DNA from: a virus
Taxonomy: Duplodnaviria; Caudoviricetes
Strand: one strand, 5' to 3'
Virus record (IMG/VR): IMGVR_UViG_3300034101_003213
Location: 1 to 59,978 of that record
DNA length: 59,978 nucleotides
Part shown: piece by piece, positions 1-51,336 of the stretch
Position numbering within the stretch: position 1 is the first letter of the stretch
Layout: every line of letters begins with the position of its first letter
Notes under the pieces: generated by a model
Told to the model about the DNA's origin: nothing
Databases searched by the model: none
What the model saw: the letters and a program-made list of their open reading frames with translations, nothing else
Position numbers and translations under genes: made by a program

Positions 1-215
1 AGGACCTTGGGCACCAGTGGCTCCTGTGGCTCCAGTGTTTCCTTGAGGACCTTGGGCACCAGTGGCTCCTGTGGCTCCAGTGTTTCCTTGAGGACCTTGG
101 GCACCAGTGGCTCCTGTGGCTCCAGTGTTTCCTTGAGGACCTTGGGCACCAGTGGCTCCTGTGGCTCCAGTGTTTCCTTGAGGACCTTGGGCACCAGTGG
201 CTCCTGTGGCTCCAG
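1..215. repeat. 45-bp tandem repeat encoding collagen unit [15 protein letters not shown]
   Basis: AGGACCTTGGGCACCAGTGGCTCCTGTGGCTCCAGTGTTTCCTTG starts at 1, 46, 91 and 136 (perfect) and 181 (partial); degenerate copies continue to ~360. Confidence 0.95.
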
Positions 216-1311
216 TGGCTCCAGTGTTTCCTTGGATGCCTTGAGCACCAGTGGCTCCGGTGTTTCCCTGAATGCCTTGGATGCCTTGGGGACCAGTTGC
301 ACCAGTTGCTCCTGTGTTTCCTTGGATTCCTTGGGGACCAGTGGCTCCTGTGTTTCCTTTTTCAGCAGTCAAAGATGTTACAGTAAATTTCAAAAATTCA
401 ACAGTTATACTATTTGTGGCAGTTTTGTTTTGAACAATAAAAAAGACTCTATCGCCATATGCAAGATCTAATATTGTTTGAATTACAGAAGAAACAGGTT
501 GAGCAGATGGATTTGCAGAGTTAGCATAAATTTCACTTTCACTAATTCTATCTGCATTTGGATCAAGGGTGGAACCTGCAACTGAATTTTTTCCAACATA
601 AAATCCACAAACATCTTGGCTTCCACTGTAAAAGTTAAAGTTTGCAATGATGTGGAATCGTCCACCAGACCCATCATATTTCAATGCATTTTTTGAACCA
701 TCTTTGGAAAAATTAAATAGTGTTCCAGTCTGTGCTGTTCCCCCAACTATTGCTCTTCCATTTATAGATGGTATAATTGTTGCTGTGGTATTTCCTTTCA
801 AATACATCACACCCACATCATTATTGCCAGGTGCACCAGATCCAGAAGGGCCTTGGGGGCCAGTTGGTCCGGTGGGCCCAATTGATCCCATCCCACTAGT
901 TGATGTTATAGTTAGTCCTTTTGGTCCTAAAGTTAAATTAATATTATTTCCAGCATACAGAGTAACACCACCAGTAAGACCATTAAGAGTTGCTACATAA
1001 TTTCCAGTAATCCCAGATACACCACCAGATATTGATTTCCAAACAAATCCGGTTCCGGTTTGTTGTCTTATGTAAAGAACATCATTTTCATCAAACCAAA
1101 ATTGATTTTCTTCTGGTTGTAGTGGTGCTTCGGCGTTTTGATATGGCTCAGTTAGTTGGGTTAGTTTCCAACTTTTGGGAGACTGAAAAGGAGAACTTTG
1201 AGTAACTTCAAGACACTCATAAACCTTTCCCTGAAATATCACAACATCACCTATGGCATAGGTATATGGTGTACCAGAGGCGTTTCTAAACTTAAACTTA
1301 CCCTTAAACAT
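1..1311 (-). CDS. Collagen-like (Gly-X-Y) virion fibre protein, 3' end outside window
   Basis: Hand translation gives an open frame from ATG at 1311 to the window edge: [24 protein letters not shown] (CBM5/12-like), [13 protein letters not shown] fibre motif, short GPT collagen, C1q/BclA-like beta domain ([13 protein letters not shown]), then long GNT/GAT/GPQ collagen. TATAAATA lies upstream. Not in the ORF track because there is no stop in the window. Confidence 0.9.
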
Positions 1312-1318
1312 TCACAAA

Positions 1319-1326
1319 TATTTATA
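1319..1326 (-). promoter_or_regulatory. T4-type late promoter TATAAATA
   Basis: Perfect gp55 box 7 nt before the collagen ATG. Confidence 0.75.
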
Positions 1327-3043
1327 CTTGTGACTTGATCCGGGAAAAGTTATTTTTCTTCTCAAATTGTAGTTGTTGATCAAATTTATCAGTCAAAGCA
1401 TCTGCTTTATGGCTAATTATGTAAATTGAACATTTATTCTTCATTTTGTTCAATAACTTCAAGAAAGCCTCAGTACCAGCTCCGTCCAAAGATGAATCCA
1501 ATATCTCATCAAAGATGAGAAGATTGCAGTTCAAACTGTTCTTCATTTTGGCAATCTCTCTCCATGTCAAGAGAATGGCCAAATCGATACGCTGTTTCTC
1601 TCCCTCAGAGAAAGAGGAATATGAGAATGCATCTCTATATCTTGACTTAATTGTTTCCTTGAACTCCTCATCGATGTTGAAGTCAACATAGAGGTTAAGT
1701 TTTCCGAGAAACTTGTTGACGAGTCCATTGATGATGGGAACATAATGTTTGATAATCCGGCTCTTAAGTCCACCATCTTTGAGCATATCATAGACAACAT
1801 CGTAGTGAATTTGGTCATTAATTGATTTTTGTAGATCTGATGCATGTTTATTCTTTTCTGCAACTGCCTCTTCGATCTTAGTATTGATTTCAGATTCACT
1901 TGAAGTTTTCTTTATTTTTGCAATTTTTTGATTTAAGGATAAAACTTCGTTATTGAACCCATTTTTACGGGTTACGGCTTGAGCCTGCATAACCGTTTTT
2001 TCCATTATCTGATTATTTAAATCTTCAACTTGAGTTTTTAAAATTTCAAGTTCTTTCAATTTTTTATCTGCAACTTGTAAAGATTTCTTACAACTTGCTA
2101 ATTTTTCTCTTTTTTCCTCCAAGTGCTTCTGTCGAGAATCTTCCGGTAGTGTTTGACCGCAGCAAGTGCACTTTGGATCTGTCTCCAAGGTCTTTATTTG
2201 CTCTATAAGCGTCTCTTGCAGTTCCAATGCCTTGGAGTGCATTGTTGGAACGCTGGCCAAGGAAGCCATTTTAGAGGCTTCCTGCTTCTTTAAAGATTCA
2301 ATCTCACTAATTTCTTTTACAATTTTTCTAATAAAAGACTCTTCAGAAACAATAGAATCTTTAATTTTTTGTAATTGTTCTTCGTACTCAGCAAGCTCTA
2401 AATTTTTATTATTATCTATTTGAGTTTTGAGTTCATTTAAAGACTTGACTTTTTCATGTCCAATTTTAAGAAAACTTTCTTGCTCTTTAATGTTTCCTTT
2501 AATACGAAGAAGTTCACTCTTGACATGTATATTCATGTCTGCCAAGATATCAAGGTCAAGTAGACCTTCAATAATCTTTCTTCGCTCTGCTGGAGAAAGT
2601 TGCATGAATGGCACAAAGTTTGACTTGCCAAGAATTACAACTTGTTTGAAAGCTTCAAAGTTAAATCCAAGTATTTGTTCTTCAAAGTAATCTTGTGAGT
2701 CTTTGGCTTTGGCGTGCTGATCCAGCATCTCACCATCTTTGTAAATCTCAAAAGTCTTGGGTGCCAAAGTACGACGAACTAGATACTTTGAATTTGATCT
2801 GACAAATTCCACTTCAACAACGCAGTTCTTTCCATTGACTGAATTTACAAGTTGTGGGAGATTAATCGATCTGAATGGCTTACCAAATAAACCGAAGCAC
2901 AATGAATCAAGAAGAGCAAATGATTTACCATGGCCATTGGTGCCGGTTACCAAAGTGGTCTTATTGTTATTGAGTATTATTTCAGAAAAATTATTTCCGA
3001 ATGATCCAAAATTTTTAAATCGAACACGCTGAAACTCAATCAT
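1322..3043 (-). CDS. gp46: Recombination endonuclease subunit (Rad50/SbcC-like)
   Basis: Walker A GTNGHGKS, coiled coil with CxxC hook (CTCC), FSEGEKQRIDLA signature, LIFDE Walker B; adjacent to gp47. Confidence 0.95.
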   Translation of the reverse strand: MIEFQRVRFKNFGSFGNNFSEIILNNNKTTLVTGTNGHGKSFALLDSLCFGLFGKPFRSINLPQLVNSVNGKNCVVEVEFVRSNSKYLVRRTLAPKTFEIYKDGEMLDQHAKAKDSQDYFEEQILGFNFEAFKQVVILGKSNFVPFMQLSPAERRKIIEGLLDLDILADMNIHVKSELLRIKGNIKEQESFLKIGHEKVKSLNELKTQIDNNKNLELAEYEEQLQKIKDSIVSEESFIRKIVKEISEIESLKKQEASKMASLASVPTMHSKALELQETLIEQIKTLETDPKCTCCGQTLPEDSRQKHLEEKREKLASCKKSLQVADKKLKELEILKTQVEDLNNQIMEKTVMQAQAVTRKNGFNNEVLSLNQKIAKIKKTSSESEINTKIEEAVAEKNKHASDLQKSINDQIHYDVVYDMLKDGGLKSRIIKHYVPIINGLVNKFLGKLNLYVDFNIDEEFKETIKSRYRDAFSYSSFSEGEKQRIDLAILLTWREIAKMKNSLNCNLLIFDEILDSSLDGAGTEAFLKLLNKMKNKCSIYIISHKADALTDKFDQQLQFEKKNNFSRIKSQV

Positions 3044-4086
3044 TCTTCTTCCTTAGACAGTGCACTATTATAAGCTGTGTTTATAATGTCTGCAAGTTGC
3101 TTTTTGTCAATGGACTTTTCTGTGATTGTATTAATTTCTTCGTGCAGCAGCTGTAGAGTATCTTTATGAATATCAACAGCAATGGTCTCTGGGTTTGTAG
3201 AAACCTCTTCTGCTACGGCTAATTCAGCAACACCAGCCTCATAAAACTTATCAAGATACTTTTCAAACATTGCTTGTTTGGTTTTCTTTTTAATAAAAAT
3301 TTTTACATAGCAATCTTTGTAAGAAATATAATCTAATATTTCTTTCTTATCTTCGTCATAATCCAAAGTGTAAAATAGTTTTTTAGGATTCTCTACAAAT
3401 TCTAGATTTCTCTCTTGGAAATCAAATACATGAAATCCCTTCTTTTCCCATACATCAGAAAAACTCATTTGGTATTGGGTTCCCAAATAGTGAATGCTAT
3501 CTCTACTGGACTTAATGTGATAATGTCCTGTTAGGACATACTCAAACTTATCAAAATGTTTTGATTCATATCCTTGATCGATAAACACACCACGAATGCT
3601 TTGAAAGCCACATAGTTCTAAGTGACCCAACAAAACCGTGCAAGATGTCTCAGAAAGAAACTTGGCGGCTGCTTCTTCGTTCTCTGGGTTTATCCACGGG
3701 AGTAACGCGACACAACCGCTGGAAAGATGAATCTCGGTGGGCTCTGAATATACTGACCAATTCGGATAATGTCCAGCGAGTTCTTGCAAGGAATTGATGG
3801 CATTGGTATTTCGATAATAGATATCGTGGTTTCCACAGATGATGTGTACTTTAATGCCCATTTCTTGTAGTGGCTCAAAAAACTCTTTTTGAACTCTATG
3901 CAGCGTTTTAAAATTGACATACTTTCTTCGGTCAAACAAATCCCCCAAATGAAAGATTGTTTTGATGTTGTGTTCCTTGAGGTAAGGAAACAATTGCTCT
4001 TTAAAGAAAGATAAAAAATAATCCATGACAATGCATGAATCATTTTTATATCCAAAATGCGTGTCGTTGAGAATTACTGCTTTCAT
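3040..4086 (-). CDS. gp47: Recombination endonuclease subunit (Mre11/SbcD-like)
   Basis: Phosphoesterase motifs DTHFG, GDLFDRRK, GNHD, GHYH. Confidence 0.95.
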   Translation of the reverse strand: MKAVILNDTHFGYKNDSCIVMDYFLSFFKEQLFPYLKEHNIKTIFHLGDLFDRRKYVNFKTLHRVQKEFFEPLQEMGIKVHIICGNHDIYYRNTNAINSLQELAGHYPNWSVYSEPTEIHLSSGCVALLPWINPENEEAAAKFLSETSCTVLLGHLELCGFQSIRGVFIDQGYESKHFDKFEYVLTGHYHIKSSRDSIHYLGTQYQMSFSDVWEKKGFHVFDFQERNLEFVENPKKLFYTLDYDEDKKEILDYISYKDCYVKIFIKKKTKQAMFEKYLDKFYEAGVAELAVAEEVSTNPETIAVDIHKDTLQLLHEEINTITEKSIDKKQLADIINTAYNSALSKEEE

Positions 4087-4649
4087 ACATCAAATGGTGA
4101 TTTAGTCTTGCGCTTCTTTCTTTTCTTTTTCTTTGGGGCGCACATCTCGTCAAATCTTTCCATATCCAAATCTGTAAGACCAAAGAAGTCTCTTCTTCCA
4201 ATGTCAACACCAGCATAAGTTTCATTAAACCAGTTATGGAAGTCTTTATCGTTCTGCTGTTCTGCAAATTTATATTGAATATACTTTTCTTTCTTTTCTT
4301 TGTTTATGATACGCACAAAAGAAAACCAGCATATTTGGGTTAGATAACCAAATGGGCTGGTTGATTTTTTTGGATCAAAGTTATCAATATAAGTTACGCA
4401 GTTTAATACAGCATCCGATACCATTTCTTCCCTATATGGATAGTTGGCAAAGTTTGGTCTATAAGATAATCTGGTTGCTATCTTTAGAATGCATTCACCA
4501 ATATAATCGGGAAGTTTGGGTTGCTTTCTTCCTGAATTTTCTGCGTCCCTGCACTTCTTTCGATATTCAACCAAAGAGTCATACAGTTGCTGATTGTCTA
4601 CATAATCAGCATCTGATGGTTTGAGTTTTTTCTTCTTTGGCTTTTTCAC
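4083..4649 (-). CDS. gp55: Late-transcription sigma factor
   Basis: YVDNQQLY..IGECILKIATRLSYRPNFANYPYREEMVSDA..NFDPKKSTSPFGYLTQI; upstream of 47/46 as in T4. Confidence 0.95.
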   Translation of the reverse strand: MKKPKKKKLKPSDADYVDNQQLYDSLVEYRKKCRDAENSGRKQPKLPDYIGECILKIATRLSYRPNFANYPYREEMVSDAVLNCVTYIDNFDPKKSTSPFGYLTQICWFSFVRIINKEKKEKYIQYKFAEQQNDKDFHNWFNETYAGVDIGRRDFFGLTDLDMERFDEMCAPKKKKRKKRKTKSPFDV

Positions 4650-4655
4650 GGTATT

Positions 4656-4683
4656 ACTATAACTCAGATTTCAACTAAATCAA
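4656..4683 (-). promoter_or_regulatory. Sigma70-like promoter for gp55
   Basis: TTGATT-N16-TATAGT, 6 nt before the GTG start. Confidence 0.55.
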
Positions 4684-5668
4684 CTTTTTTGTTACTAAGT
4701 CTTACACTCCAGTAATCAACCATCTCTTCCATCATTTGATTAAATGATATCTTTGGTTTCCAATTTAACTCTTTTCTTGCCTTAGAAGAATCACCGCGCA
4801 AATAATGTAATTCTTCAGGTCTGTAATACTTTTCATCACTGAAAACATATTTGTTTTGATCTAAGCCTGCATAGTTGAAAACATAGGAAACCATTTCTCT
4901 GACAGACCTGGTTTCACCTGTGGCAATTACATAACTTTGTGGAGTTTGTTGCTGCAACATTAACCACATAGCTTCAACATAGTCCTTAGCGTGGCCCCAA
5001 TCACGATAAGAATCTAAATTGCCCAATGTCAGTCTATCAGCCAACCCCATTTTAATCTTGGCTACCTGCAACGCTACTTTATTTGTTACAAAGTTAATTC
5101 CTCTTCTTGGAGATTCGTGATTAAATAAAATTCCAGAGCAAGCAAAAATACCATATGCTTGACTATAGTTTCTGCATAATGTGTGGGCATACAACTTAGC
5201 ACAGCCATAGGGGCTTACTGGAATCATCGGGGTTGTTTCACGCTGATAACCGTCTGAGTCTTTTGAGTTGCCAAACATCTCGGATGTTGCAGCGTGATAA
5301 ATCTTAGAATGTGGTGAAAATCTTCTTACAGCCTCTAACACTGCTAGAGTCCCACCACCATTTACATCCAAAGTATATTGCGGAAGATCAAATGAAATTT
5401 GAACATGAGACTGTGCAGCAAGATGATAAACTTCATCTGGTTGAAGTTTTTGAATTGTGCTTTCTATGCTCAAAGCATCAGTCAAATCCGCATAGTGGAG
5501 AGTAATTAAATTTTTATCATGTAAATGTTGTATGCGGGTTGTTTGTGATTCTGGTACTGAATTTCTTCTTATTGTACCATGAACTGTGTATTGTTTTTCT
5601 AAAAGAAACTCTGCAAGATATGAAGCATCTTGCCCATTTGCGCCAATTATTAATGCAACTTTATTCAT
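4664..5668 (-). CDS. gmd: GDP-mannose 4,6-dehydratase
   Basis: GANGQDASYL, HLAAQSHV..SF, SPYGCAK, LFNHESPRRG, RDWGHAKDYV. Confidence 0.95.
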   Translation of the reverse strand: MNKVALIIGANGQDASYLAEFLLEKQYTVHGTIRRNSVPESQTTRIQHLHDKNLITLHYADLTDALSIESTIQKLQPDEVYHLAAQSHVQISFDLPQYTLDVNGGGTLAVLEAVRRFSPHSKIYHAATSEMFGNSKDSDGYQRETTPMIPVSPYGCAKLYAHTLCRNYSQAYGIFACSGILFNHESPRRGINFVTNKVALQVAKIKMGLADRLTLGNLDSYRDWGHAKDYVEAMWLMLQQQTPQSYVIATGETRSVREMVSYVFNYAGLDQNKYVFSDEKYYRPEELHYLRGDSSKARKELNWKPKISFNQMMEEMVDYWSVRLSNKKVDLVEI

Positions 5669-5674
5669 AATTTA

Positions 5675-5702
5675 ACTATACACAACAATAAGTATTAATC
5701 AA
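5675..5702 (-). promoter_or_regulatory. Sigma70-like promoter for gmd
   Basis: TTGATT-N16-TATAGT, 6 nt before ATG; same layout as the gp55 promoter. Confidence 0.55.
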
Positions 5703-6325
5703 CTATTTTTTAAATAGAAAGCATCACCCCACGGATGATCTTCCCAAAGTTTTTTTTCTTTTCTAGAAAAATTGTAGTTAGAAAGAAATGAATCTATCTC
5801 GTTTAAAAGTCCGCAATCTTTGTACACTTCCTTCTCATTGATCTCCAAATAAATTGAGTTTACAATTGGTAGATGTTTTACAAATCCCTTTAAAGCCAAA
5901 AGTTCAGCTCCTTGAATATCAATGTTTACAAAATCTATTTCATTTAAAAATTTTGTTTCTTGTAAAAGAGTATCTAAAGTTTTAGTTTTTCTAACTTCTC
6001 TTCTAACATAAAAAATGTCAGGAAATAGAGATCTATGTTCTGCTAAATCTAGAATAGATGATGATTGATCTGAGTTTGCTATGTTAAAAACTACTTCATC
6101 ATCGTCCTTATCTGAAATAACTTCGTTGCTCAAATAATGTTGAGGGCCAGTAAGAATGTTTTTTAAATTTTCAAAAAGATTTACATTTGCTTCAACCCAA
6201 TGAATTTTATTAGCACCACAATCAATGTACGATTGTGATTCTTGGCCTTGATGTGCTCCGATATGGAGTATATTTTCAGTTTTAATATTGTATTTATTTT
6301 TTAGTTCAGATAATTCTATTAACAT
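5699..6325 (-). CDS. FkbM-family SAM methyltransferase
   Basis: HIGAHQGQE, WVEAN, TLD, NIDIQGAELLALKG, WGDAFY; start moved to MLIELS. Confidence 0.88.
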   Translation of the reverse strand: MLIELSELKNKYNIKTENILHIGAHQGQESQSYIDCGANKIHWVEANVNLFENLKNILTGPQHYLSNEVISDKDDDEVVFNIANSDQSSSILDLAEHRSLFPDIFYVRREVRKTKTLDTLLQETKFLNEIDFVNIDIQGAELLALKGFVKHLPIVNSIYLEINEKEVYKDCGLLNEIDSFLSNYNFSRKEKKLWEDHPWGDAFYLKNS

Positions 6326-7002
6326 GATATTCCATTCCAATTGTTATATACAAAAATATCGCCGTGCCAATCTAAATAATTTTTTGGATAAAAAACATTT
6401 GATTTTTGGGATAAAAATCCAATCCACCAACTAAAAGTTCCTCCAGACAAAATAATATTTTCAAAATCTTTTGCAAATAAAATTGTATTCTCTGGTGTGT
6501 TTTCGTACATAGATAAATTATACTTTTGACAAAGATGATATATCATGGGGTGGTGAAGAGTATCTGAAGATACATATCCAAATTTTGGATTTAATTTATT
6601 CAAACACATTTCATAATATGGTATACCAGGATTTTTGGATGCAGCATCATCTAATCTAACATGCACAAAGACACCTTCTTTTTTATTATCATTTAAATTT
6701 AAGAAATGATTTTGTATTTCATTTTTAAAATTAGTTACAAAAAATTTTGTTTGAAAATATGTAGAAGATTCTAATCCGCAGTGCATTTCCTTTTTTTGTA
6801 AAATTTCATCTACATTATCATCTGTAATTGTAATGTAATTATCATTAATTACTCTGCTACCTTGATATAAATTTAATTTGATTTTATCATAATTTTTTTT
6901 ATAATTTTGAACATATAAGTCGTGTTTTTTAGCTAAAATGCTACAACCAATATCTTGAAGTAAATTATTACCTAACCGACCATAGTGATTTATTTTTATC
7001 AT
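6319..7002 (-). CDS. Alpha-1,2-fucosyltransferase-like (GT11)
   Basis: GRLGNNLLQ, YFQ, VHVRLDD, GTFSWWIGFL. Confidence 0.8.
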   Translation of the reverse strand: MIKINHYGRLGNNLLQDIGCSILAKKHDLYVQNYKKNYDKIKLNLYQGSRVINDNYITITDDNVDEILQKKEMHCGLESSTYFQTKFFVTNFKNEIQNHFLNLNDNKKEGVFVHVRLDDAASKNPGIPYYEMCLNKLNPKFGYVSSDTLHHPMIYHLCQKYNLSMYENTPENTILFAKDFENIILSGGTFSWWIGFLSQKSNVFYPKNYLDWHGDIFVYNNWNGISC

Positions 7003-7895
7003 ACAATGTTATTCAAAATGTATTTTGCCATTTGTTCAGTTGTACAAGTGTTTTTACAATAATTTAAAATAGCTTGCAATAGAGTTTTATATTTTTGTTC
7101 ATCAAAAACCATATCATTTATTTCTATAGATGGAATTAAATTCTTAGATAAACTAACACCAGGTAAATTTTTTGCTTCTATTAATAACTCTTTTGGCAAA
7201 AATGTTAATGTATTTTTTGGGCAACTTTCAATATCTGTAAAATACGGCATGCAGTTGTTAAATATAATTTCATAATGCCGCATGCAATCCCATCCACCTT
7301 TTTTATGTGTTATTGCGTAATATGAATTTTGATAATCTTTATAATAATCTTCTTCTTTATTAAAGATATAAGTTTCTTGATATCCGGGAACAACTGTGGC
7401 ATTTGTCTTTGTTTTATTGTAAACTGTACAAATTTTTTCTTTGGGAAAAGAAAATCCTATTGGTTTCATATTTTCATGTTGTCTGTAATCTAATTCTCTT
7501 TTAAAGTAACTGGCTCGCCAAGTAATGTGAGGTGCCATGTGGTGAACTTGGTGCTGGTCTTCTCCGTCTAAGAATATACATTTACTTCCAGAATCAATAG
7601 CAGAATAAAAATATGATAAATTTCTATGAATTGATCCCCATATGATTAAATCAAAATGCCTGTCATTTATTTTTTTAAAAATATAATTTCTATCAACATC
7701 AATATCTTCTAGCGTTCTAAAAATTGTAAAACCTCGGCCCCATGTTTTCATTTCTGATTCTGGAAAAGAATTAGAATACATGTAATCCATTTTGGGACAA
7801 TCTACAACATCAGTTCCATACAATGATCTGAGCCCATGAAATAGAGTGTCTGCCAAATAATCTGGAGATCCAGAATTCACATAAAGTATTTTCAT
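6999..7895 (-). CDS. Putative glycosyltransferase (exostosin/GT-B-like)
   Basis: DGED, FKRE and KKGGWDCMRHYEI motifs; lies inside the glycan island. Confidence 0.55.
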   Translation of the reverse strand: MKILYVNSGSPDYLADTLFHGLRSLYGTDVVDCPKMDYMYSNSFPESEMKTWGRGFTIFRTLEDIDVDRNYIFKKINDRHFDLIIWGSIHRNLSYFYSAIDSGSKCIFLDGEDQHQVHHMAPHITWRASYFKRELDYRQHENMKPIGFSFPKEKICTVYNKTKTNATVVPGYQETYIFNKEEDYYKDYQNSYYAITHKKGGWDCMRHYEIIFNNCMPYFTDIESCPKNTLTFLPKELLIEAKNLPGVSLSKNLIPSIEINDMVFDEQKYKTLLQAILNYCKNTCTTEQMAKYILNNIV

Positions 7896-8479
7896 TGTTT
7901 TTCTAAAATTGTCAAACCACTAGAAAAAGGATATACAAACTTTTTTGTCCATTGTGGATTTTGTTCTAGGAACTCATCGATTGCTGGATTTATTCCTTTT
8001 AGGTTTGTGTTTAAAGCATCGTCTTCAAAATCTTGACCATAGGTTCCAAATAATTCTGTGTCGTGAAAAACTAAGTATTTTTTTACCTTTGATGCGTGTC
8101 TCTCCAACTCACCTTTAACTTGGTTATATTCATGATATGTATCTAGAAACAGCAAATCAGTTTCTTCAATATCACAATCAAGTGTACTGGCTTCAATAAA
8201 TTTATAGTCAATATTGTTTGCTTTAGCCAAATCATATACCTCTTGGATATTTTGATTATGTTTCATTGGATTGACCAAATCAACTGAGACCATTTTTTTA
8301 GGACAGCCATACAAAAAAGCCCACGTGCTCACAATCGTCCTTACACCAAATTCAGTTACCGAATCACATTTTGATGATAAAAATGCTAGAATAGGTAAAT
8401 GCTCAAAAATGTCTGAACGATTATATACTTTATTTAAAAATTTATATTGTAATTCGATTGAAGGTATTCTATCTGTCAT
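7892..8479 (-). CDS. Class I SAM methyltransferase (Methyltransf_24-like)
   Basis: EFGVR..ST, DLLFLDTYHEY, VFHDT; ATGA overlap with the upstream gene. Confidence 0.8.
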   Translation of the reverse strand: MTDRIPSIELQYKFLNKVYNRSDIFEHLPILAFLSSKCDSVTEFGVRTIVSTWAFLYGCPKKMVSVDLVNPMKHNQNIQEVYDLAKANNIDYKFIEASTLDCDIEETDLLFLDTYHEYNQVKGELERHASKVKKYLVFHDTELFGTYGQDFEDDALNTNLKGINPAIDEFLEQNPQWTKKFVYPFSSGLTILEKQ

Positions 8480-9468
8480 TTGTTTGTCTTCCAAAAATTG
8501 TAAATTCCTTTTTCAAGTTCGTAGTTTTCCCACTCTTTTCTTTTTCTGATTGGTTGAGTCTGTGCCCAATTCCACATTGCTTGTAACCCATCTTTTAAAG
8601 ATGTTGGAGCATTGAAGTTTAAAGCTTTCTTTATTTTATCATGTGTGACCCACGCTTGTTTTACTTCATGCCTTTCTTCAAGATGAACGATTGGATAATT
8701 ACCAACTATATCAGTAAGAGTTTTTGCTGCATCATTTATTGTAATATGATCGTCACCACCCATATTAAATATTTCTTTTGAGCAAACTGGATTGACTGCC
8801 GCTTCCCATAAATAGGGCAAACAATCATCAATATAACTGAATGCTCTTTCTTGGTTGCCATCACCATAAATGGTTATGGGAATATCATTCAAAATATTAT
8901 ACATCCATATTCCTAAAACGTTTCTATATTTATCCCAAATATTTTGTTTTATTCCATATACATTGTGTGGTCTGATTATACACCAATCCAAACCATGTTG
9001 TTCTCCTGCGATTTGTAGATCCATTTCACAACCGTATTTTGCTATACCATATGGATCAATGGGGTTTGGAATATAGTCCTCCCTAAATGGTGCTACGGCT
9101 CTACCATAAACCGCCATGGACGATGTAAATACAAATCTTTTGACATCGTGTTTTATTGATTCATTAATCAATCTTGTTGTAGCAATCAAATTATTTTCAT
9201 AATTAAATTGTCTTATGAATGGACTTAAACCCTCTGCTGCATATGCGGCAAAGTGAAACACGTACTCTGGTTTGTGGTGTTCAAATACTTCATTCAATCT
9301 AGGTGCGTGTGCCAAATTTAAATTATAAAATTTTATTTGAGGGTTTACATTTTCTATGTAACCTCCGCTCAAATCATCAATACCAATAATGTAATGTTTA
9401 TTAGAAAGATAATCAGCTAAACGCGAACCAAGTAAACCAGCAACTCCAGTTATTAAAATTTTACTCAT
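8476..9468 (-). CDS. NAD-dependent nucleotide-sugar epimerase/dehydratase (extended SDR)
   Basis: TGVAGLLG, TSSMAVYG, YGIAK (YxxxK), RPHNVYG. Confidence 0.92.
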   Translation of the reverse strand: MSKILITGVAGLLGSRLADYLSNKHYIIGIDDLSGGYIENVNPQIKFYNLNLAHAPRLNEVFEHHKPEYVFHFAAYAAEGLSPFIRQFNYENNLIATTRLINESIKHDVKRFVFTSSMAVYGRAVAPFREDYIPNPIDPYGIAKYGCEMDLQIAGEQHGLDWCIIRPHNVYGIKQNIWDKYRNVLGIWMYNILNDIPITIYGDGNQERAFSYIDDCLPYLWEAAVNPVCSKEIFNMGGDDHITINDAAKTLTDIVGNYPIVHLEERHEVKQAWVTHDKIKKALNFNAPTSLKDGLQAMWNWAQTQPIRKRKEWENYELEKGIYNFWKTNK

Positions 9469-9469
9469 A

Positions 9470-10267
9470 TTAATTCCTCACAAGGTGTATATATTTATCA
9501 ATGTTTTCAAGAAGGTATTTTGGATATGTATCGTCTAAAGATACAACTTTTGCTGTCATTTTTCTAAAGAAGAGATCTTGTGTGTTGCAATCCATATTTT
9601 TATCCAAAGCATTTCTTACTTCATCAGTATTATACTCTTGATGTGCGTATGCATCAAGTTTTTCTAATATTTTTTCTTTACCACCAATAAAACTAAAATG
9701 CCAACCACCATCGGAAACATCGATGGAATATGGAAGCATCTGATCTCTGTTTCTAATAGAATTGACTTTTAAAAACTTAAATATTTCATAAGTACAAAGT
9801 CTTGTTCCATTCCATTTTTTTGTTCCAAAATAATCCTCTTCAATTAGATTGTTTATATAGTAATAATAAAAATTTTGTTTGAACACATATATCTTTTGTG
9901 GGTTCATATCTGACAAAACTTCTTTTACTTTTATTGGATTTGGTATTTCGTCTAAATCACTTATTAGGATCACATCATTATTAGAACAATTTTCTAAAGG
10001 ACGCAATATTGCATTTTTTTGAAATATTTCTCTTGAAGCGGTGTCATAGTCCTCTGGAGAATCCGAAACTATTGAGTAAATAATTTTGTCTTTAAATTTA
10101 CTAAATCTATCAATGTGTTTTTGAAAATGCAGTTCTTTGGGTTTGCCCGTAAATGTGTGAGTGCACTCTGATATTACGAAGTAATCAACAACATCGTTAA
10201 GTGTATTAAGTCTTATTTCTAATAAATCTAATTCATTAAAAAATGGAAAACAATCATATACCTTCAT
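9470..10267 (-). CDS. GT17-family GlcNAc-transferase-like
   Basis: YDCFPFFNELDLLEIRL, SDLDEIP, GGWHFSF, AHQE. Confidence 0.88.
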   Translation of the reverse strand: MKVYDCFPFFNELDLLEIRLNTLNDVVDYFVISECTHTFTGKPKELHFQKHIDRFSKFKDKIIYSIVSDSPEDYDTASREIFQKNAILRPLENCSNNDVILISDLDEIPNPIKVKEVLSDMNPQKIYVFKQNFYYYYINNLIEEDYFGTKKWNGTRLCTYEIFKFLKVNSIRNRDQMLPYSIDVSDGGWHFSFIGGKEKILEKLDAYAHQEYNTDEVRNALDKNMDCNTQDLFFRKMTAKVVSLDDTYPKYLLENIDKYIHLVRN

Positions 10268-10901
10268 TAGAGTCTCCAAAATTTTTATTAAAAATTTTCA
10301 TTGCATTTTCTAAATGATTACCACCATGAAACCCAAAATATTGATTTAAATCGTTTGATTGGTTTTCCATATCTCTTTCTAAACCCCACTTTAATGCTAC
10401 TTCTAAAGGAGCATATTTGCAACCATTCTCTAATAAAAAATCTCTTGCCAAATCACAAATAACAGCATCTTCGTTTCTTTCAATATACGGGACTTTGGTT
10501 AAAAGATACAAAAGTTTTTTTGACCTAAATGAAAACCCACCATTACCTACATGGTGTTTAAACCAAGGCCAAGGAGATCCAATGTAATCATAATTGTAAA
10601 AATTATCATCCCACAAATGCGGATTTAAAATAAATCCATCTGTTTGCATCCAAATAGAATAATCAGTTATTAAAAATGGATATACATTTTTTAAACAAAA
10701 ATTGTTAAATTCCCCGTAAGTCATAGGGTTTATTTTAAATGGAGTTACATAATCCAAAGTTGTTATTGGATTAACAGAAAAATGAAAAATGTTATCAAAT
10801 TTAATTTTTAAATTTGTTTTTGTAATAATATTACAAATTTTTTCTGTATCTTTACCAACACCATCAATAAAAATTGCTGTTATGTTTTTTAACTCAAGCA
10901 T
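10254..10901 (-). CDS. DUF5672-like putative glycosyltransferase
   Basis: QTDGFI..YDYIGSPW..VGNGGFSFRSKKL..NED..FGFH. Confidence 0.8.
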   Translation of the reverse strand: MLELKNITAIFIDGVGKDTEKICNIITKTNLKIKFDNIFHFSVNPITTLDYVTPFKINPMTYGEFNNFCLKNVYPFLITDYSIWMQTDGFILNPHLWDDNFYNYDYIGSPWPWFKHHVGNGGFSFRSKKLLYLLTKVPYIERNEDAVICDLARDFLLENGCKYAPLEVALKWGLERDMENQSNDLNQYFGFHGGNHLENAMKIFNKNFGDSNEGI

Positions 10902-11448
10902 CTGGTTTTTCCATGTACCACACGTCACAAAAGGGAATAACTTTTGCATTAGGAATTATTTCATCTACTGCTTTTTTAACACTCTCAGCAGCTATATCGT
11001 GACCACCTATTATACCACCCTTTTTTAATTTTGGTAGCCAATGTATGATGTCTTCTTTGACATCTTTATATTCGTGGCTTGCATCTATAAAAATGAAATC
11101 CAACGATTCATCATCATATGTTTTTGATGCATTTTTTGATGAAAGTCTAATTGGATTAATTATATGCTTCACTGGTTCAATATTTTTAATAAACTCGTCA
11201 TAAAGTTTATCTTCAACTATAAATGGATCATTAATGTGTTCTACTGATCCTTTCCAAGTATCAACGCAATCAAATTTAATTAATTTTTTAGAATTAATTA
11301 TTTCTACCGCCATATGTACCGAACTTCTTCCTTTCCAAGAACCAATTTCTACAAAATGCGAACCCGAATCAAATACTTCCACCATTTTTTTATAAAATGG
11401 TGCATATGTAAACCAATCTTCTCCAATACTTTGATAAAAATGTTCCAT
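10894..11448 (-). CDS. Class I SAM methyltransferase (Methyltransf_24-like)
   Basis: VEIGSWKGRS, VDTW, DFIFIDASHEY, GGIIGGHD. Confidence 0.9.
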   Translation of the reverse strand: MEHFYQSIGEDWFTYAPFYKKMVEVFDSGSHFVEIGSWKGRSSVHMAVEIINSKKLIKFDCVDTWKGSVEHINDPFIVEDKLYDEFIKNIEPVKHIINPIRLSSKNASKTYDDESLDFIFIDASHEYKDVKEDIIHWLPKLKKGGIIGGHDIAAESVKKAVDEIIPNAKVIPFCDVWYMEKPDA

Positions 11449-12212
11449 TATTCTAAGATCTCCACTTTTTCTTTTGATGATAATTCGATACCATTTAAAA
11501 TATATTGATGGATAAAATTTCCACTATGTGTAAACGAATACTTTGAATCTGAATCTAAACAAACATAATCATTTATGTTTGTTGGACATACTGATACCAA
11601 CCCATCAACATGACAAACCAAGTTGTCTATAGGGCCATCGTACCCATTTGTTTCAACATAATCAATTAATTTTTTGGCTCCTTGTTTTGATAAACAATAT
11701 CCTGCAAATCCTTCAAACATTAATCCTTTTTGTTTATCAATAACCTTTAACCGATTGTCCCAAATTGCAGTTGGATAGGTTTCAACTATGTGATTTTTAT
11801 TTTGATAGTGTGCTGTTTCTGCCTGTAAATATAAAAGATCATAATGATTTGGATCAAAAGATTTTAAAGAATCGAATGTAAATTTATCTGAAAATCTGCA
11901 ATCGTCTTCGCATATTAAATATGCTGAGTCGCTTTCATCATTTAACAATTCTTCCCATATGCTCTTATGGGCCATTAGCGCTGCTACTTCGCCAAAACGA
12001 ATCCAAAGTCTATTTGTATATTTTAATAAATTTTGCGTATTTATTAAATAGTTCTTATCTTTAAAAATGAATCCAGGTTGTTTAGTAAATTTTAAATTTT
12101 TATTATCTACACCTAATCTATATTGAAATTCGATATTTTTTGATTTAAATAACTCATCTATTTTTTTCTGTCTATCAAATGCTTCTGGCAAAGTTATTAC
12201 TCTGGTTTTCAT
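11448..12212 (-). CDS. GT25-family glycosyltransferase
   Basis: VITL..DR, GEVAALMAH..W, LICEDD, GYCLS..GAKKL, PID. Confidence 0.85.
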   Translation of the reverse strand: MKTRVITLPEAFDRQKKIDELFKSKNIEFQYRLGVDNKNLKFTKQPGFIFKDKNYLINTQNLLKYTNRLWIRFGEVAALMAHKSIWEELLNDESDSAYLICEDDCRFSDKFTFDSLKSFDPNHYDLLYLQAETAHYQNKNHIVETYPTAIWDNRLKVIDKQKGLMFEGFAGYCLSKQGAKKLIDYVETNGYDGPIDNLVCHVDGLVSVCPTNINDYVCLDSDSKYSFTHSGNFIHQYILNGIELSSKEKVEILE

Positions 12213-13075
12213 AGTTGAATAGTTCTTTTAATTTTTTGTTTTATTGAATCTAATGATTGTGATATATCATATTTGAAGATAGGAGCATTTTTCATTCTTT
12301 GGTAAACATCCTCATTAGAATCAACATATTTTATATATTCTAAACACTCTTCATATGTTTTAAAATTGTTTACATAGATAAAACAATCTGGATTAAAATC
12401 ACTTAACACATAAGAATCACCCCAATATATGGGTATGCATCCTGCTGTCTTTGCTTGTAAAAATTTTTCTGTAACATAACCTGTTTTATATGTGTTCTCA
12501 AATGCCATAGCAAATCTAAAAGAACAAATGGCATCATATTTTCTTAATTGATTTCTATCATTATCACCATTACCAAATGGTAATCCAAACCCATAAGTTG
12601 TTTTATAGGTGTTTAAAATATTAAAAAAGTCTACTCTATTTTTGTGAATAGCAGAAAACGGAGCTACACAAAATTTATCTTTTGCAGTATTGAACCATTT
12701 GTTGTTGTTTAACTCATATTGGTTCATTGCTGGAATTGGATTTTTTTGATTTTGAAGATTATAAAAATTAATATAAATGTACCATAAAGGTAATCTTATA
12801 TTTTTTAAATCTTCTCTATCTGGGTCAAAAGATAAATGATAATCACCATCTTTATATTGAACTGGCTTTGGTTCGGCCATAAAGGTTAATATTTTTGTCT
12901 TTGACCTATCTATTTCAGATGGAACATAATTTTCTGCAACCAAGCACAAATTACAATCATTTACATTGTTAGTTACAATTAAATCCTCACCGTATATATC
13001 TTTTAAGGTTGAGATGAAAAAACTTTCATCGTAGTTAAAATCCGGCCAAAAATTATGAATACTTAATCGAATCAT
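12209..13075 (-). CDS. Alpha-1,3/4-fucosyltransferase-like (GT10)
   Basis: FRFAMAFENTYKTGYVTEKF..AGCIPIYWG. Confidence 0.92.
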   Translation of the reverse strand: MIRLSIHNFWPDFNYDESFFISTLKDIYGEDLIVTNNVNDCNLCLVAENYVPSEIDRSKTKILTFMAEPKPVQYKDGDYHLSFDPDREDLKNIRLPLWYIYINFYNLQNQKNPIPAMNQYELNNNKWFNTAKDKFCVAPFSAIHKNRVDFFNILNTYKTTYGFGLPFGNGDNDRNQLRKYDAICSFRFAMAFENTYKTGYVTEKFLQAKTAGCIPIYWGDSYVLSDFNPDCFIYVNNFKTYEECLEYIKYVDSNEDVYQRMKNAPIFKYDISQSLDSIKQKIKRTIQL

Positions 13076-13889
13076 TAGTCACACTTTCATATAAACAATC
13101 ATCAGATGTTTTTAAGTTCATAACCTTTTCAAAGTTATGTTTAATAGCAGGCATCATATTTATATACCTTTCTTCTGTCAAGTCTTCAAATGATTTTAAA
13201 TCATCTAAAAAAATTATACCATTTGAATCAAAATCCTCACCAATTGAACGATCACCATAATAAATTGGGATTGTTCCTGTTGCAAAACAATCTAAAATTT
13301 TTTCTGTGTAATACTTTGGATAAACTGTGTTCTCCATTGCTATTGAAAATCGATAATCTTTAAGGCCATCTAGTTTATCTTTTAATGGGTTGCAATCTCT
13401 CCCATAAATATGTCCTTTAAACATTGGATTGTTTTCTAGATCTCTATATAACATGACTCTCTTTATATGACCCGAAGTAAAAGACTTAAAACTTGTTATA
13501 AAAGAACACGTTAAAGATTTGTCATATATTTTACAATCTTTAATCCAAGTCATATTAGATGCTGGTGGATTATATTCAAAAAAATCAGGATGCCTTTCTA
13601 TTAATCTTCTATCGTTAGTGTATATTTTTTTATATACTTTTTTGAAAGATTCTATGTTTCTTTCTATTGCTGCAATTAAATGGTGTATAACTTCGCTTGA
13701 TTCACCGAGCCACCCATATTTTGGCCCAGTATATCCATCATCAATATAATTAAATATGAAATCATCAAAATAAACTACTGGTTCATTATTTTCTGGTCGT
13801 TTGTTAAAAATCCATTTAAAATTTTTTGGTGGTTTGTTCAAACATGAATGATCTGTAAATGCGTTTGTAAAAATGTTCATTGTATTCAT
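13053..13889 (-). CDS. Alpha-1,3/4-fucosyltransferase-like (GT10)
   Basis: YRFSIAMEN..YYTEKILDCFATGTIPIYYG; ATGA overlap. Confidence 0.88.
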   Translation of the reverse strand: MNTMNIFTNAFTDHSCLNKPPKNFKWIFNKRPENNEPVVYFDDFIFNYIDDGYTGPKYGWLGESSEVIHHLIAAIERNIESFKKVYKKIYTNDRRLIERHPDFFEYNPPASNMTWIKDCKIYDKSLTCSFITSFKSFTSGHIKRVMLYRDLENNPMFKGHIYGRDCNPLKDKLDGLKDYRFSIAMENTVYPKYYTEKILDCFATGTIPIYYGDRSIGEDFDSNGIIFLDDLKSFEDLTEERYINMMPAIKHNFEKVMNLKTSDDCLYESVTNDSIKYS

Positions 13890-14674
13890 ATAATAATCCA
13901 ATCTTTGCAATAAATGTCACTCCAGTTTTTTGGCATTTCTGGATTTTCACCAAACCAATTGTGTGGAGCAATTACTTTTTTACTCTCGCTCAACCACGCA
14001 CCCCACCAACTATAACTACTATTGGCGATTACATGATAATCACATAAAGTCATTGCACACATGTCTGTATATTGATCTTCTGGCTCTGTTATGAAATAAC
14101 TTCTGTTTAATGAATCAAAAATTTTTGATGCCTCATTTGGTTCATCACTGAATCCTATTATCAACAGATCTTTCGGAAGCAAGTCTAGGGCTTCTTTATA
14201 ATATTTTTCATCCATAATTGGATGTTTGCCAACTAAGTTTTTATAATCACCAATTCGTAGATGGACAGAAATAACAGGATCTTTTGTAATACTTCTTACT
14301 GTGGATGCTTTTTCTAAAATTGATTTTTTAAAAGTAAATTCTTTTTGTAAATCGTTTCTATAGTTTTGAAAATATTTTTCACTTTGAAAATATCCACAAA
14401 TATCTGTATTATCAGGTATTCCAAAAATGCCCGCATTGTATGTAAATACATTTTCTTGTGCTCTATGTATTGGAATAAAAGTTGAACTATCTTCGGCTGA
14501 TAATTTTTCAAATGCCTCGTCCAAACAAAAATTTAAATAAGCATTGTCTGATTTTATTTTATAAGGAACTCCAAATTTATACTTTTTAGTTTTTGCTATC
14601 GAATAAAGCGTAGCATATTGAAACATCTGATTGCCAAATCGACCATATCTTCCCATCATATTAAATGAAATCAT
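13886..14674 (-). CDS. Alpha-1,2-fucosyltransferase-like (GT11)
   Basis: GRFGNQMFQYA, GYFQSEKYF, VHLRIGDY, IANSSYSWWGAWL. Confidence 0.93.
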   Translation of the reverse strand: MISFNMMGRYGRFGNQMFQYATLYSIAKTKKYKFGVPYKIKSDNAYLNFCLDEAFEKLSAEDSSTFIPIHRAQENVFTYNAGIFGIPDNTDICGYFQSEKYFQNYRNDLQKEFTFKKSILEKASTVRSITKDPVISVHLRIGDYKNLVGKHPIMDEKYYKEALDLLPKDLLIIGFSDEPNEASKIFDSLNRSYFITEPEDQYTDMCAMTLCDYHVIANSSYSWWGAWLSESKKVIAPHNWFGENPEMPKNWSDIYCKDWIII

Positions 14675-15306
14675 CAGAATTCACTATTCCTATCTGATAG
14701 TGGGCTGTCAGTTAAAGACTGCCATTTATTGGCATTTTCTCTAGCATTAGATTGATAAATCATCGGAATATTTGGAGTCAATATTAAATAATCATTTTGT
14801 AGAGCCGCTGTTCCAAGATCCCATGGTCTTTTTAATTCATCTAAACAATAATTTCCTACATCACACATTCTTTGTCTATATTCTGGATTTAAATATAAAA
14901 TTGCATGTGCAGCAAGAACACCACCTATTCTCATATAATTTTCATTGTATTTTTTTGTTTTATAAAAAACATTACCATGAGAAATTCCAAGATATATTCC
15001 ATCAGCTTCATCTGGTATTTCAATCACGGGGTTAAATGGTTCAACAAACTCAATATCATCTTCTAAAATAAGAAGTGGTGTAGTATACCTGCTGTCAGCT
15101 AAAATGTCTGTATGTGATTTGCCACAACCCATAAAGTGGGCTATAGATTGTTCTGTCCCTTCTGGTGGTGGGATAATTAAACCAGACTTTCTATGAGTAT
15201 TTTTAAACTCATATTTTTTAAATCTTTCTTCCATTATTTCCGCATTTGTTTTTGCGGAGTTTAAATTTATCCAAACAACTGGAATTTCACGCAAATCAAT
15301 AATCAT
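14674..15306 (-). CDS. GT25-like glycosyltransferase
   Basis: WINL, GCGKSH, LILEDD, AHAILY; GAGGA RBS before MIIDL. Confidence 0.75.
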   Translation of the reverse strand: MIIDLREIPVVWINLNSAKTNAEIMEERFKKYEFKNTHRKSGLIIPPPEGTEQSIAHFMGCGKSHTDILADSRYTTPLLILEDDIEFVEPFNPVIEIPDEADGIYLGISHGNVFYKTKKYNENYMRIGGVLAAHAILYLNPEYRQRMCDVGNYCLDELKRPWDLGTAALQNDYLILTPNIPMIYQSNARENANKWQSLTDSPLSDRNSEF

Positions 15307-15322
15307 TATAGTCCTCACATTT

Positions 15323-15388
15323 AATATAGAGTATTATTAATAAATGTCAAATATATTTATTTGACTTTATCTAGAGTTACTTTATAGT
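15323..15388. promoter_or_regulatory. Divergent sigma70-like promoters (glycan island and uvsY)
   Basis: Minus strand TTGACA..TATATT; plus strand TTGACT..TATAGT. Confidence 0.5.
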
Positions 15389-15409
15389 TCTCTATAAAAA
15401 GAACTTAAG

Positions 15410-15847
15410 ATGAATCTAGAGAACCTTAAAGAACATATTACTAAAGACTCTATAGTAGACTCTACAGAACTAGGTACAGAGGCTATTAAGATACCACAAA
15501 TACACGGTAAGTACATTAATTTACTTACAGACATGAAATTGCTTTTGACGAAGCAACAGCAAGAGTATGCCATTCTTCGTCTTCGTAAGTGGAAAATTTA
15601 TACAGGTAAAGCATCCAAAGAAGAACTAGAAATTTGGAAAGAAGATCCATTTGAATTGGATATTCTTAAAACTGATGTAGATAAATTTATGGATGCAGAT
15701 CCACAACTTACAGATTTAAAACTCAAAATTGCTTTGTCAGAAACAAAAGTAAAGATGGTTGAAGAATTTTTAAAATCACTCAACAACAGAAACTTTGTGA
15801 TCCGATCTGCCATCGATTGGCAAAAAATGATGAACGGTATAGTCTAA
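15410..15847 (+). CDS. uvsY: Recombination mediator UvsY
   Basis: IPQIHGKY..LKTDVDKFMDAD..NRNFVIRSAIDW; precedes uvsW. Confidence 0.92.
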   Translation: MNLENLKEHITKDSIVDSTELGTEAIKIPQIHGKYINLLTDMKLLLTKQQQEYAILRLRKWKIYTGKASKEELEIWKEDPFELDILKTDVDKFMDADPQLTDLKLKIALSETKVKMVEEFLKSLNNRNFVIRSAIDWQKMMNGIV

Positions 15848-15854
15848 ATATTAT

Positions 15855-17363: not shown

Positions 17364-17381
17364 TCTAAAGGAGGACATTAA

Positions 17382-25806: not shown

Positions 25807-25807
25807 A

Positions 25808-51281: not shown

Positions 51282-51336
51282 GTTGAATCCTTTATGTTCT
51301 GTGATTATAACCCTTCTTTTAGGATATACAAATAAT

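Follow-up and report, generated by a model that had tools for sequence, protein, structure and literature searches.

The stretch of DNA analyzed here (hereafter, the window) is the complete IMG/VR virus record IMGVR_UViG_3300034101_003213, which comprises 59,978 bases and has a CheckV completeness of approximately 33%. Pfam and PHROG matches identified the core genes gp46, gp47, gp55, UvsY and UvsW, and the window further encodes a major capsid protein (gp23), scaffold, protease, portal, terminase, sheath, tube paralogues, baseplate proteins and gp32. Because this is a T4-like core gene set, the window is judged to be a fragment of an uncultured T4-like myovirus. Here we describe a block of putative glycan-synthesis genes (the island) in this DNA, its relationship to a late collagen-like fibre gene at the window edge, and a glycosyltransferase of approximately 410 amino acids, GT413, which lies between regA and the fibre genes in relatives. 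The island fills a variable slot with two conserved anchors: the gene for a gp55-like late sigma factor on the right-hand side (4083..4649, minus strand; phrog_234, E 4e-53) and UvsY on the left-hand side (15410..15847, plus strand; Pfam).

Fourteen open reading frames (ORFs) on the same strand occupy 4664-15318 (minus strand), with a widest gap of 30 nt and coupled junctions (-4/-1/+1) in 6 of 13 cases. Thus, the unbroken run of 14 glycan genes described in the initial annotation was borne out. The likely first start of the island is the ATG at 15306, which is preceded by GAGGA. The first gene in the direction of transcription (14674..15306; ORF to 15318) encodes a weakly GT25-like protein of phrog_24091: the Pfam match (E 0.12) is below threshold, and an Atlas feature lead (0.97) points to a cluster in which 41% of the members carry PF01755. 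It is followed by genes for a GT11-family glycosyltransferase (13886..14674; Pfam and PHROG), two GT10-family glycosyltransferases (13053..13910 and, of fucosyltransferase type, 12209..13075; Pfam), a GT25-family glycosyltransferase (11448..12212; Pfam), a Methyltransf_24 S-adenosylmethionine-dependent methyltransferase (10894..11448; Pfam), a DUF5672 protein (10254..10949; Pfam), a GT17-family glycosyltransferase (9470..10279; Pfam E 1.9e-28), a GalE-like SDR epimerase (8476..9468; Pfam), a CmcI/rhamnosyl-O-methyltransferase-like (RMNT_CmcI) methyltransferase with a borderline Pfam score (7892..8494; 23.4 bits against a cut-off of 23.2), a 298-amino-acid protein (6999..7895), a weak GT11-like protein (6319..7002; phrog_2644 E 5.5e-7; Pfam GT11 E 0.022, below threshold), an FkbM-family methyltransferase (5699..6340; Pfam) and a GDP-mannose 4,6-dehydratase, Gmd (4664..5668; Pfam; TIGR01472 at 400.7 bits against a cut-off of 415). 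The 298-amino-acid protein gave no family match in Pfam, PHROG and NCBIfam searches; an Atlas structural lead (TM 0.68-0.79) makes it a candidate GT-B fold of the Glyco_trans_1_2/RXYLT1/exostosin-like kind. Eleven of the 14 proteins score above the Pfam curated cut-off, including 5 glycosyltransferases that pass the gathering thresholds (two GT10, GT11, GT17 and GT25). The enzyme list of the initial annotation therefore stands for these 11 families, and its second GT11, second GT25-like and exostosin-like members depend on weak matches or leads.

The SDR protein had been described simply as an epimerase, and its SDR family assignment holds. Its best solved relative is a UDP-glucose 4-epimerase (PDB 4zrm, E 3.7e-49), and it scores 66 bits against the 500-bit cut-off for GDP-fucose synthase. 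By these scores, it is probably a UDP-sugar 4-epimerase, and an assignment as GDP-fucose synthase is excluded. Fcl (GDP-fucose synthase) was not found in the 60-kb window, which covers approximately 33% of the genome, and no second SDR is present among the window ORFs scanned. Because the SDR is GalE-like and Fcl is missing, the encoded GDP-fucose route appears incomplete. A methylated 6-deoxyhexose glycan is nevertheless a reasonable product to predict for the island. The G+C content is 25-34% in 13 of the 14 island genes and 37% in Gmd, compared with 35-43% in the adjoining core genes; values of approximately 30% are also reached elsewhere in the window. Gmd gave no clue to the host or donor: its closest cellular homologues reach at most 56% identity and are spread across many phyla. 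An additional gene for an FkbM-family methyltransferase lies far from the island (52163-52750, minus strand) and adjoins a GMP-reductase/IMPDH-like gene (53328-54383).

A megablast search of window positions 1-17400 against a phage genome collection gave zero DNA matches. Therefore, relatives were sought at the protein level. In the same collection, the best identities were at most 46% for UvsW (Prochlorococcus phage P-TIM40 and Methylophilales phages) and at most 54% for the major capsid protein (cyanomyoviruses). A search of IMG/VR with gp55 yielded 415 related stretches, of which 80 loci were kept (labelled L008 and so on). Both gp55 and UvsY are visible in 24 loci, which contain 222 distinct island ORFs; 144 of these were annotated, covering 13 of the 24 islands. 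Five long relatives, 51-76% complete, were used for searches for the presence or absence of families. We considered whether the clade consists of cyanophages and rejected this idea: because psbA is missing from all five long relatives, the clade is probably not cyanophage. The gp55-UvsY interval in the 24 loci is 6.4-9.9 kb long, wholly coding and on one strand, with 8-13 ORFs. Glycan cassettes are present in all 13 annotated islands, and their make-up is widely divergent. Sugar-donor enzymes in them include Gmd with a DegT aminotransferase, UDP-galactopyranose mutase and UDP-GlcNAc 2-epimerase (GlcNAc, N-acetylglucosamine); modifying enzymes include sugar C-methyltransferases, a carbamoyltransferase, a GNAT acetyltransferase, and FkbM and other methyltransferases; and transferases are of the GT1, GT2, GT10, GT11, GT25, Gly_transf_sug (DXD-region) and exostosin/GT47-like types. 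A hydrophobic segment was seen in only one of the 222 island ORFs, in which it looks like an artefact of the start codon. Thus, in the relatives examined, the slot is always filled, hypervariable and predicted to encode soluble proteins throughout.

Solubility is likewise predicted for the island of the window. In all 14 island proteins, the top 19-residue Kyte-Doolittle mean is below 1.3 and none reaches 1.6, so that by this crude method for transmembrane segments, the claim that none is obvious was confirmed. The gtrABC and Wzx/Wzy systems of O-antigen conversion in temperate phages likewise consist of phage genes that alter a glycan, and they depend on membrane proteins, which are missing from the island here and from the islands of the 24 relatives. 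Furthermore, the WecA (PF00953), WbaP (PF02397) and Wzx (PF01943) families were each found in none of the five long relatives, in searches whose positive controls were detected and which did not include Wzy and WaaL families; Pfam likewise placed none of the three in the window island. These results agree with the initial annotation in setting aside a serotype converter of the gtrABC or Wzx/Wzy type. However, solubility had also been used there as an argument for a virion target, and this step fails: because the transferases for O-units and lipooligosaccharide (LOS) are soluble too, missing transmembrane segments cannot separate protein targets from lipid-linked ones. One alternative is that lipid-linked acceptors made by the host (lipid A-core or undecaprenyl diphosphate-linked units) are modified by the soluble transferases on the cytoplasmic side of the host membrane, and that a host flippase and ligase export the glycan, thereby altering receptors for competing phages, grazers and re-adsorbing progeny. 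Soluble enzymes would be enough for this purpose if export by host MsbA or a Wzx-like protein were used, and the O-antigen-like diversity of sugars among relatives fits genes derived from cell-envelope loci. On the other side, the phage O-antigen converters known from experiments all use membrane proteins (Gtr, Wzy and acetyltransferases), none of which occurs among the 222 ORFs of the 24 islands, and the priming and flipping genes were not found in the five long relatives. In addition, a lytic phage would have only one latent period in which to replace surface lipopolysaccharide (LPS). Taken with the evidence given below, we consider remodelling of the host envelope possible but rather doubtful.

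The timing of expression was estimated from promoter-like sequences. A sigma70-like promoter, TTGACA-16-TATATT (15323..15350, minus strand; 11 of 12 matches), lies ahead of the island in a 91-nt gap (15319-15409) and ties with one other site as the top sigma70-like match in 17.5 kb. All 21 distinct sequences of relatives retain it, 20 of them recognized by pattern and that of L030, TTGACA-16-TATACT, by eye, and no late box was found in the island promoter region of these 21 sequences. In contrast, a T4-type late-promoter-like box, TATAAATA (1319..1326, minus strand), precedes the start codon of the fibre gene by 7 nt. All 31 distinct sequences of relatives have a box at this place, which is an exact TATAAATA in 15 and a CTAAATA variant, recognized by eye, in the remainder, and like boxes precede the scaffold, sheath and gp25-like genes of the window. 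Across the whole window, TATAAATA occurs 9 times against 8 expected, so there is no enrichment and the positions alone are informative. Inside the island, a single TATAAATA lies 82 nt before the first GT10 gene (GT10a); the islands of relatives (189 kb) contain 24 late boxes in the sense direction, 6 of them within 40 nt of a start, which gives no clear signal. Because the gap ahead of the island has a sigma70-like promoter and no late box, and the fibre gene has a late box, the island is predicted to be an early unit that reads on into gp55, gp47 (3040..4086, minus strand; a gp47-like nuclease subunit, Metallophos in Pfam) and gp46 (1322..3043, minus strand; a gp46-like recombination nuclease subunit, SMC_N in Pfam), whereas the fibre gene is predicted to be late. 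Mycobacteriophage glycosyltransferase genes, unlike the window island, lie in a late structural operon. An early promoter fits remodelling of the host envelope. However, early timing leaves the target undecided, because the transferases that build the capsid glycan of PBCV-1 are also early (passages of PMC9614988).

The 91-nt gap holds two sigma70-like promoters back to back (15319-15409), one facing UvsY and UvsW (15855..17363, plus strand; a helicase, by Pfam and protein identity) and the other facing the island. The two -35 boxes form the near-palindrome GTCAAATAAATATATTTGAC. Across the 21 relatives, this divergent pair is conserved while the island genes are swapped.

The fibre gene occupies 1..1311 (minus strand; Pfam PF01391 E 6.9e-19). 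Its 437 codons represent the 5′ part, and the C-terminus lies beyond the window edge. In the 44 G-X-Y triplets that are visible, the Y position is occupied by Thr 25 times, by Gln 17 times and by another residue twice, and GPT, GNT and GAT all occur. The presence of a late collagen-like gene with Thr-rich Y positions 3.3 kb from the island was thus confirmed. The homologue in L008 is full length, with 1148 amino acids (L008:13306-16749) and 210 triplets. Residues 1-92 form a domain that in most relatives is encoded separately, by a small gene that follows gp46. The protein then has a short stretch of GPT collagen at residues 144-162, a globular domain at residues 163-316 (window 364-825) and repeats at residues 317-437 and beyond. 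For the globular domain, PDB yielded zero matches by sequence, and the fold search alone succeeded. AlphaFold2 predicts an all-beta domain (pLDDT 94.3), for which the best Foldseek matches in PDB are ExsFA/BxpB of the Bacillus exosporium, TNF-family ligands and cyanophage fibre head domains (E 3e-7 to 1e-5, TMq 0.52-0.68); BclA is not among the matches listed. Therefore, on the predicted model, the domain is a TNF/C1q-like jelly roll, as the C1q/BclA-like label of the initial annotation had suggested. BclA-type proteins carry such a TNF/C1q-like head, as the fibre does here. Of 1.84 billion representative proteins, 140 contain a relative of the domain, frequently at the C-terminus; among our loci, it was seen only in L025 (98%) and L008 (77%).

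In relatives, the usual gene order is gp46, a gene for 94-122 amino acids, gp45, gp44, gp62 and regA, with the fibre genes approximately 4.6 kb further on. In the window and L008 alone, a fibre gene has been inserted ahead of gp45, and the small gene forms one ORF with it. The gene arrangement indicates that the distance of 3.3 kb between island and collagen is a derived, lineage-specific rearrangement, and the argument that the initial annotation drew from this proximity was dropped. The counterpart of fibre residues 1-92 is a separate gene after gp46 in about 45 relatives (approximately 13306-13600), and the fibre gene of the window looks like a fusion.

At the usual position of the fibre genes, we found GT413. 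This gene is located between regA and the fibre genes in all 48 loci that run past regA (61-94% identity; for example, L080:16248-17489 and G010:C1:15135-16331) and is translationally coupled to regA. Downstream of it are a CTAAATA-type box, a hairpin, a 136-amino-acid ORF and then the collagen genes. Pfam assigns Glycos_transf_2 and TPR domains: an N-terminal GT-A domain with a DxD motif is followed by TPR, and the motifs DTGSTD and DADD are invariant. When a GT413 profile was compared with PDB sequences (E ≤ 0.001), only GmaR (2e-13), SunS (4.8e-10), a 7msk chain (ThuS) and a designed TPR were obtained; the likeness to GmaR is confined to the glycosyltransferase domain. In a full-length Foldseek search with the AlphaFold2 model (pLDDT 83), SunS and ThuS ranked at the top (E 4e-13 to 1.5e-12), and the next match, the wall-teichoic-acid transferase RmlT (6e-8), was approximately five orders weaker. 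The sole NCBIfam match is the SunS family TIGR04195, with 32-39 bits in 4 of 4 homologues against a cut-off of 350 bits. Because this score is far below the cut-off, GT413 is not a member of the SunS family; from these matches, we place it outside the family as a distant relative of SunS-family peptide S-glycosyltransferases. A tandem duplicate of GT413 is present in L016 and L020. The interval between GT413 and the 136-amino-acid ORF contains a conserved element of 50-70 nt (L080:17490-17555 and 31 other relatives), in which a CTAAATA-type box, a GC-rich hairpin with a T run and a ribosome site follow one another; such a promoter-then-terminator-like order is unusual.

The closest functional parallel of GT413, by analogy, is SgtA of Clostridioides difficile. 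The sgtA gene is immediately upstream of bclA3, and SgtA (GT-A and TPR) adds an initiating beta-O-GlcNAc to Thr (and Ser) of GPT repeats (passages of PMC7157674). In Listeria, the glycosyltransferase domain of GmaR GlcNAcylates flagellin, and its TPR domain has been proposed to recognize the substrate (passages of PMC9638930). Like SgtA, to which it was likened by description, GT413 has a GT-A domain and then TPR, and its gene is just upstream of a GxT collagen-like gene. Unlike the SgtA-BclA3 pair, GT413 is phage-encoded and was seen in relatives, the 136-amino-acid ORF stands between transferase and collagen, and a large variable cassette is located elsewhere in the genome.

The relationship of GT413 to GmaR and to the glycocin enzymes also suggests other acceptors, namely a host surface protein (flagellin, pilin or S-layer), whose glycosylation would block the receptors of rival phages, or a phage-made glycopeptide. 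The solved relatives of GT413 do modify flagellin (GmaR) and secreted glycocin peptides (SunS and ThuS), and GT413, like the island, belongs to an early or middle transcription unit. Genes for a precursor peptide or its export, however, were not noticed adjoining GT413, and the fixed position of GT413 before the late fibre operon in all 48 loci is better explained by a fibre substrate. Accordingly, another protein or peptide target seems improbable to us.

Hypermodification of DNA, in which the transferases place sugars on modified phage bases against restriction, as in T-even phages and in the 5-hydroxymethylcytosine (5hmC) pathways of metaviromes, is very improbable. The island and GT413 do lie within the replication and recombination module, and in T4, alpha-gt is beside gene 55. 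Moreover, phage glycosyltransferase clusters with epimerases and secondary transferases near gp45/clamp genes have been reported to glycosylate 5hmC (bioRxiv 10.1101/2023.12.21.572611). However, that study, in the passages concerned, describes mono- to trisaccharides, which the eight transferases and three O-methyltransferases here exceed, and the fold relatives of GT413 are peptide glycosyltransferases, unlike its JGT/TarP-like DNA class of GT-A enzymes. In addition, thymidylate-synthase/hydroxymethylase and C5 DNA methylase were each found in none of the five long relatives, nor was Tet_JBP, in a search without a positive control.

Based on these results, we propose a two-tier cytoplasmic system for O-glycosylation of late virion proteins, above all the collagen-like fibres, in which the island supplies the half that varies between strains. 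In this system, a host-sigma70-type promoter would drive the 14 soluble enzymes early in infection, and Gmd and the GalE-like epimerase would divert the GDP-mannose and UDP-hexose pools. GT413 would act on the fibre proteins, priming them by attachment of the first sugar to Ser/Thr, in the manner of SgtA with BclA3 and GmaR with flagellin. The island would extend the product of GT413: the GT25, GT11, GT10 and GT17 enzymes and the unassigned transferases might lengthen and branch the sugar, for example with GlcNAc, galactose and then fucose or another 6-deoxyhexose. The three methyltransferases would cap the glycan, and frequent swaps of the cassette would give related phages different coats. 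The two-tier chemistry fits because GlcNAc is the expected acceptor for GT25-type galactosylation and for 6-deoxyhexose branching of the GT10/GT11 type, as in the synthesis of Helicobacter Lewis antigens. Because GT413 lies outside the window, because the tie between the cassette and the GT413 product is one that we infer and because all of the support comes from sequence, we hold this proposal tentatively, with a confidence slightly short of even. The core idea of the initial annotation, glycosylation of virion proteins, is thus retained with independent support from GT413 in 48 of 48 relatives, and its own arguments from solubility and proximity are not.

Several observations weigh against O-glycosylation of the fibres. 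No GT413 homologue is present within the window, which ends inside the fibre gene before the syntenic position. The contig of L008, the nearest relative with the fused fibre gene, has the order island, gp55, gp47, gp46, fused fibre gene, gp45, gp44, gp62, regA, GT413, 136-amino-acid ORF and collagen genes; by synteny with it, GT413 may be expected in the genome of the window just beyond position 1. A GT413 homologue is also absent from cyanophage isolates, including P-SSM2 and S-SM2, whose clusters are homologous to the island, and therefore such clusters can work without GT413. Within the phage genome collection, the homologue closest to GT413 (34.7%) belongs to Tunturiibacter phage Tunturi_5. 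In favour of the proposal, this phage has a collagen-like tail fibre (Thr at 58 of 95 Y positions) 3.7 kb from the homologue, but the homologue sits amid DNA-metabolism genes, and a collagen gene within 9 kb was seen at just 1 of 5 distant GT413 homologue loci inspected, that of Tunturi_5. The route to GDP-fucose is incomplete in the window, as described above. Finally, GT10, GT11 and GT25 enzymes are best known from LPS and LOS synthesis.

The initial annotation had suggested that co-occurrence of the island with GxT collagens in relatives be checked, and it had counted independent variation of the two against its own proposal. Cassette type and collagen Thr content do vary independently (Spearman rho 0.29, p 0.22, n=19 loci), in a comparison that has little power either way, because the rows are related, many fibre genes are cut by locus ends and every relative has an island. 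The island most similar to that of the window is in L020, where Thr occupies 212 of 235 Y positions of the collagen, and in L061, Thr-rich collagens accompany a cassette of quite another make-up. The same cassette occurs in L037 and L038, and the first collagens of these two loci have Thr at 0 of 49 and 110 of 123 positions, respectively. The contig of L060 (76% complete) encodes Gln-type collagens (Thr in 11 of 661 triplets) and still has both the island and GT413. This independence counts in favour of a host-envelope target. As a separate observation, L085 (G004:C1:7859-15271) contains a collagen-like ORF of 2471 amino acids with 459 G-X-Y triplets and Gln at 333 Y positions; with this giant Gln-type fibre, L085 retains GT413 and a glycan cassette.

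The island is a fresh instance of a kind of phage gene cluster that has already been described. As in the 'LPS-like' clusters of T4-like aquatic phages (P-SSM2 type), a long block of contiguous genes for nucleotide-sugar enzymes and soluble glycosyltransferases, all on one strand, lies in a plastic region between T4-like core genes, and homologues are shared. For example, the P-SSM2 cluster contains Gmd, three nucleotide-sugar epimerases, two GT2, GT1, GT11, GT6 and GT25, and the S-SM2 cluster contains two GT11 adjoining GT25. Homologues of the GT11 protein encoded at 13886-14674 (37-40% identity) occur in 103 phage records, all of which are cyanomyoviruses or uncultured/marine virus records. 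The S-SCSM1 cluster has Gmd, Fcl and fucosyltransferases (PMC9602691). Unlike the cyanophage clusters, the slot of this distinct clade is fixed between gp55 and UvsY, is filled in every relative examined and has a conserved early promoter; furthermore, the window has three O-methyltransferases and no Fcl, and the clade carries GT413.

The customary explanation of such clusters is the host-surface one. Sullivan et al. (2005; PMC1079782) named the cyanophage 'LPS genes' and proposed that the host surface is changed during a stalled infection. The idea has been repeated for cyanophages (PMC2984593, PMC9602691) and for pelagimyophages, in which glycosyltransferase genes lie amid the tail fibre genes (PMC7029224). 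In accord with it, the homologous Gmd...GT11...GT25 clusters of P-SSM2 and S-SM2 lie amid host-metabolism genes. However, the passages of these four papers that deal with the idea give a proposal with no test reported in them. Moreover, a host-envelope target would make GT413 an unrelated modifier that adds a single sugar, and it leaves a protein-type glycosyltransferase beside the fibre operon unexplained. The idea of a virion coat departs from this customary explanation, and the clade, with its fixed early slot and a protein-type glycosyltransferase placed as in C. difficile, offers a testable alternative to the old host-surface annotation.

Virus-made glycans are known elsewhere. In PBCV-1, soluble early glycosyltransferases, GMD/GMER, methyltransferases and a glycosyltransferase annotated as exostosin build a methylated capsid glycan containing fucose and rhamnose (passages of PMC9614988); unlike the glycan proposed here, that of the chlorovirus, a eukaryotic virus, is attached to the capsid protein by an N-linkage. 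The C-termini of mycobacteriophage capsid and tail-tube proteins are glycosylated (Freeman 2023, as cited in PMC12619734). In the literature that we searched, no virion glycan of a T4-like phage was reported. With regard to collagen, galactosylation of Thr is required for (Gly-Pro-Thr)10 to form a triple helix, and viral collagens contain an excess of Thr triplets (passages of PMC11923368).

Stated for the clade as a whole, our proposal is more tentative still: these T4-like phages may wear a strain-specific 'phage O-antigen', in which a conserved SgtA/GmaR-like primer and the exchangeable gp55-UvsY cassette would provide each lineage with its own branched, methylated deoxyhexose glycan. If so, the glycan would stabilize Thr-rich triple helices and set how hosts, grazers and particles see the virion, and by extension, the 'LPS genes' of marine T4-like phages would be reinterpreted as virion-coat genes. 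Should the fibres prove to be glycosylated, T4-like phages would be counted with chloroviruses, mimiviruses and mycobacteriophages among the viruses that produce coat glycans of their own, there would be a folding rationale for the Thr-rich phage collagens, and phage surfaces would vary along a second axis, that of the glycan, in addition to fibre sequence. If, on the other hand, the host envelope is the target, the diversity of the cassettes would map the diversity of host glycans.

Other features of the window were recorded during the analysis. Four paralogues match the tail-tube family phrog_45 (18005-18556, 25258-25815, 25808-26386 on the minus strand and 39092-39679 on the plus strand). 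Two large ORFs, 47028-50567 (minus strand; 1179 amino acids) and 34586-36988 (minus strand; 800 amino acids), have no match in PHROG or Pfam. The ORF at 51211-52125 (plus strand) encodes a lysozyme domain fused to a C-terminal LysM domain.

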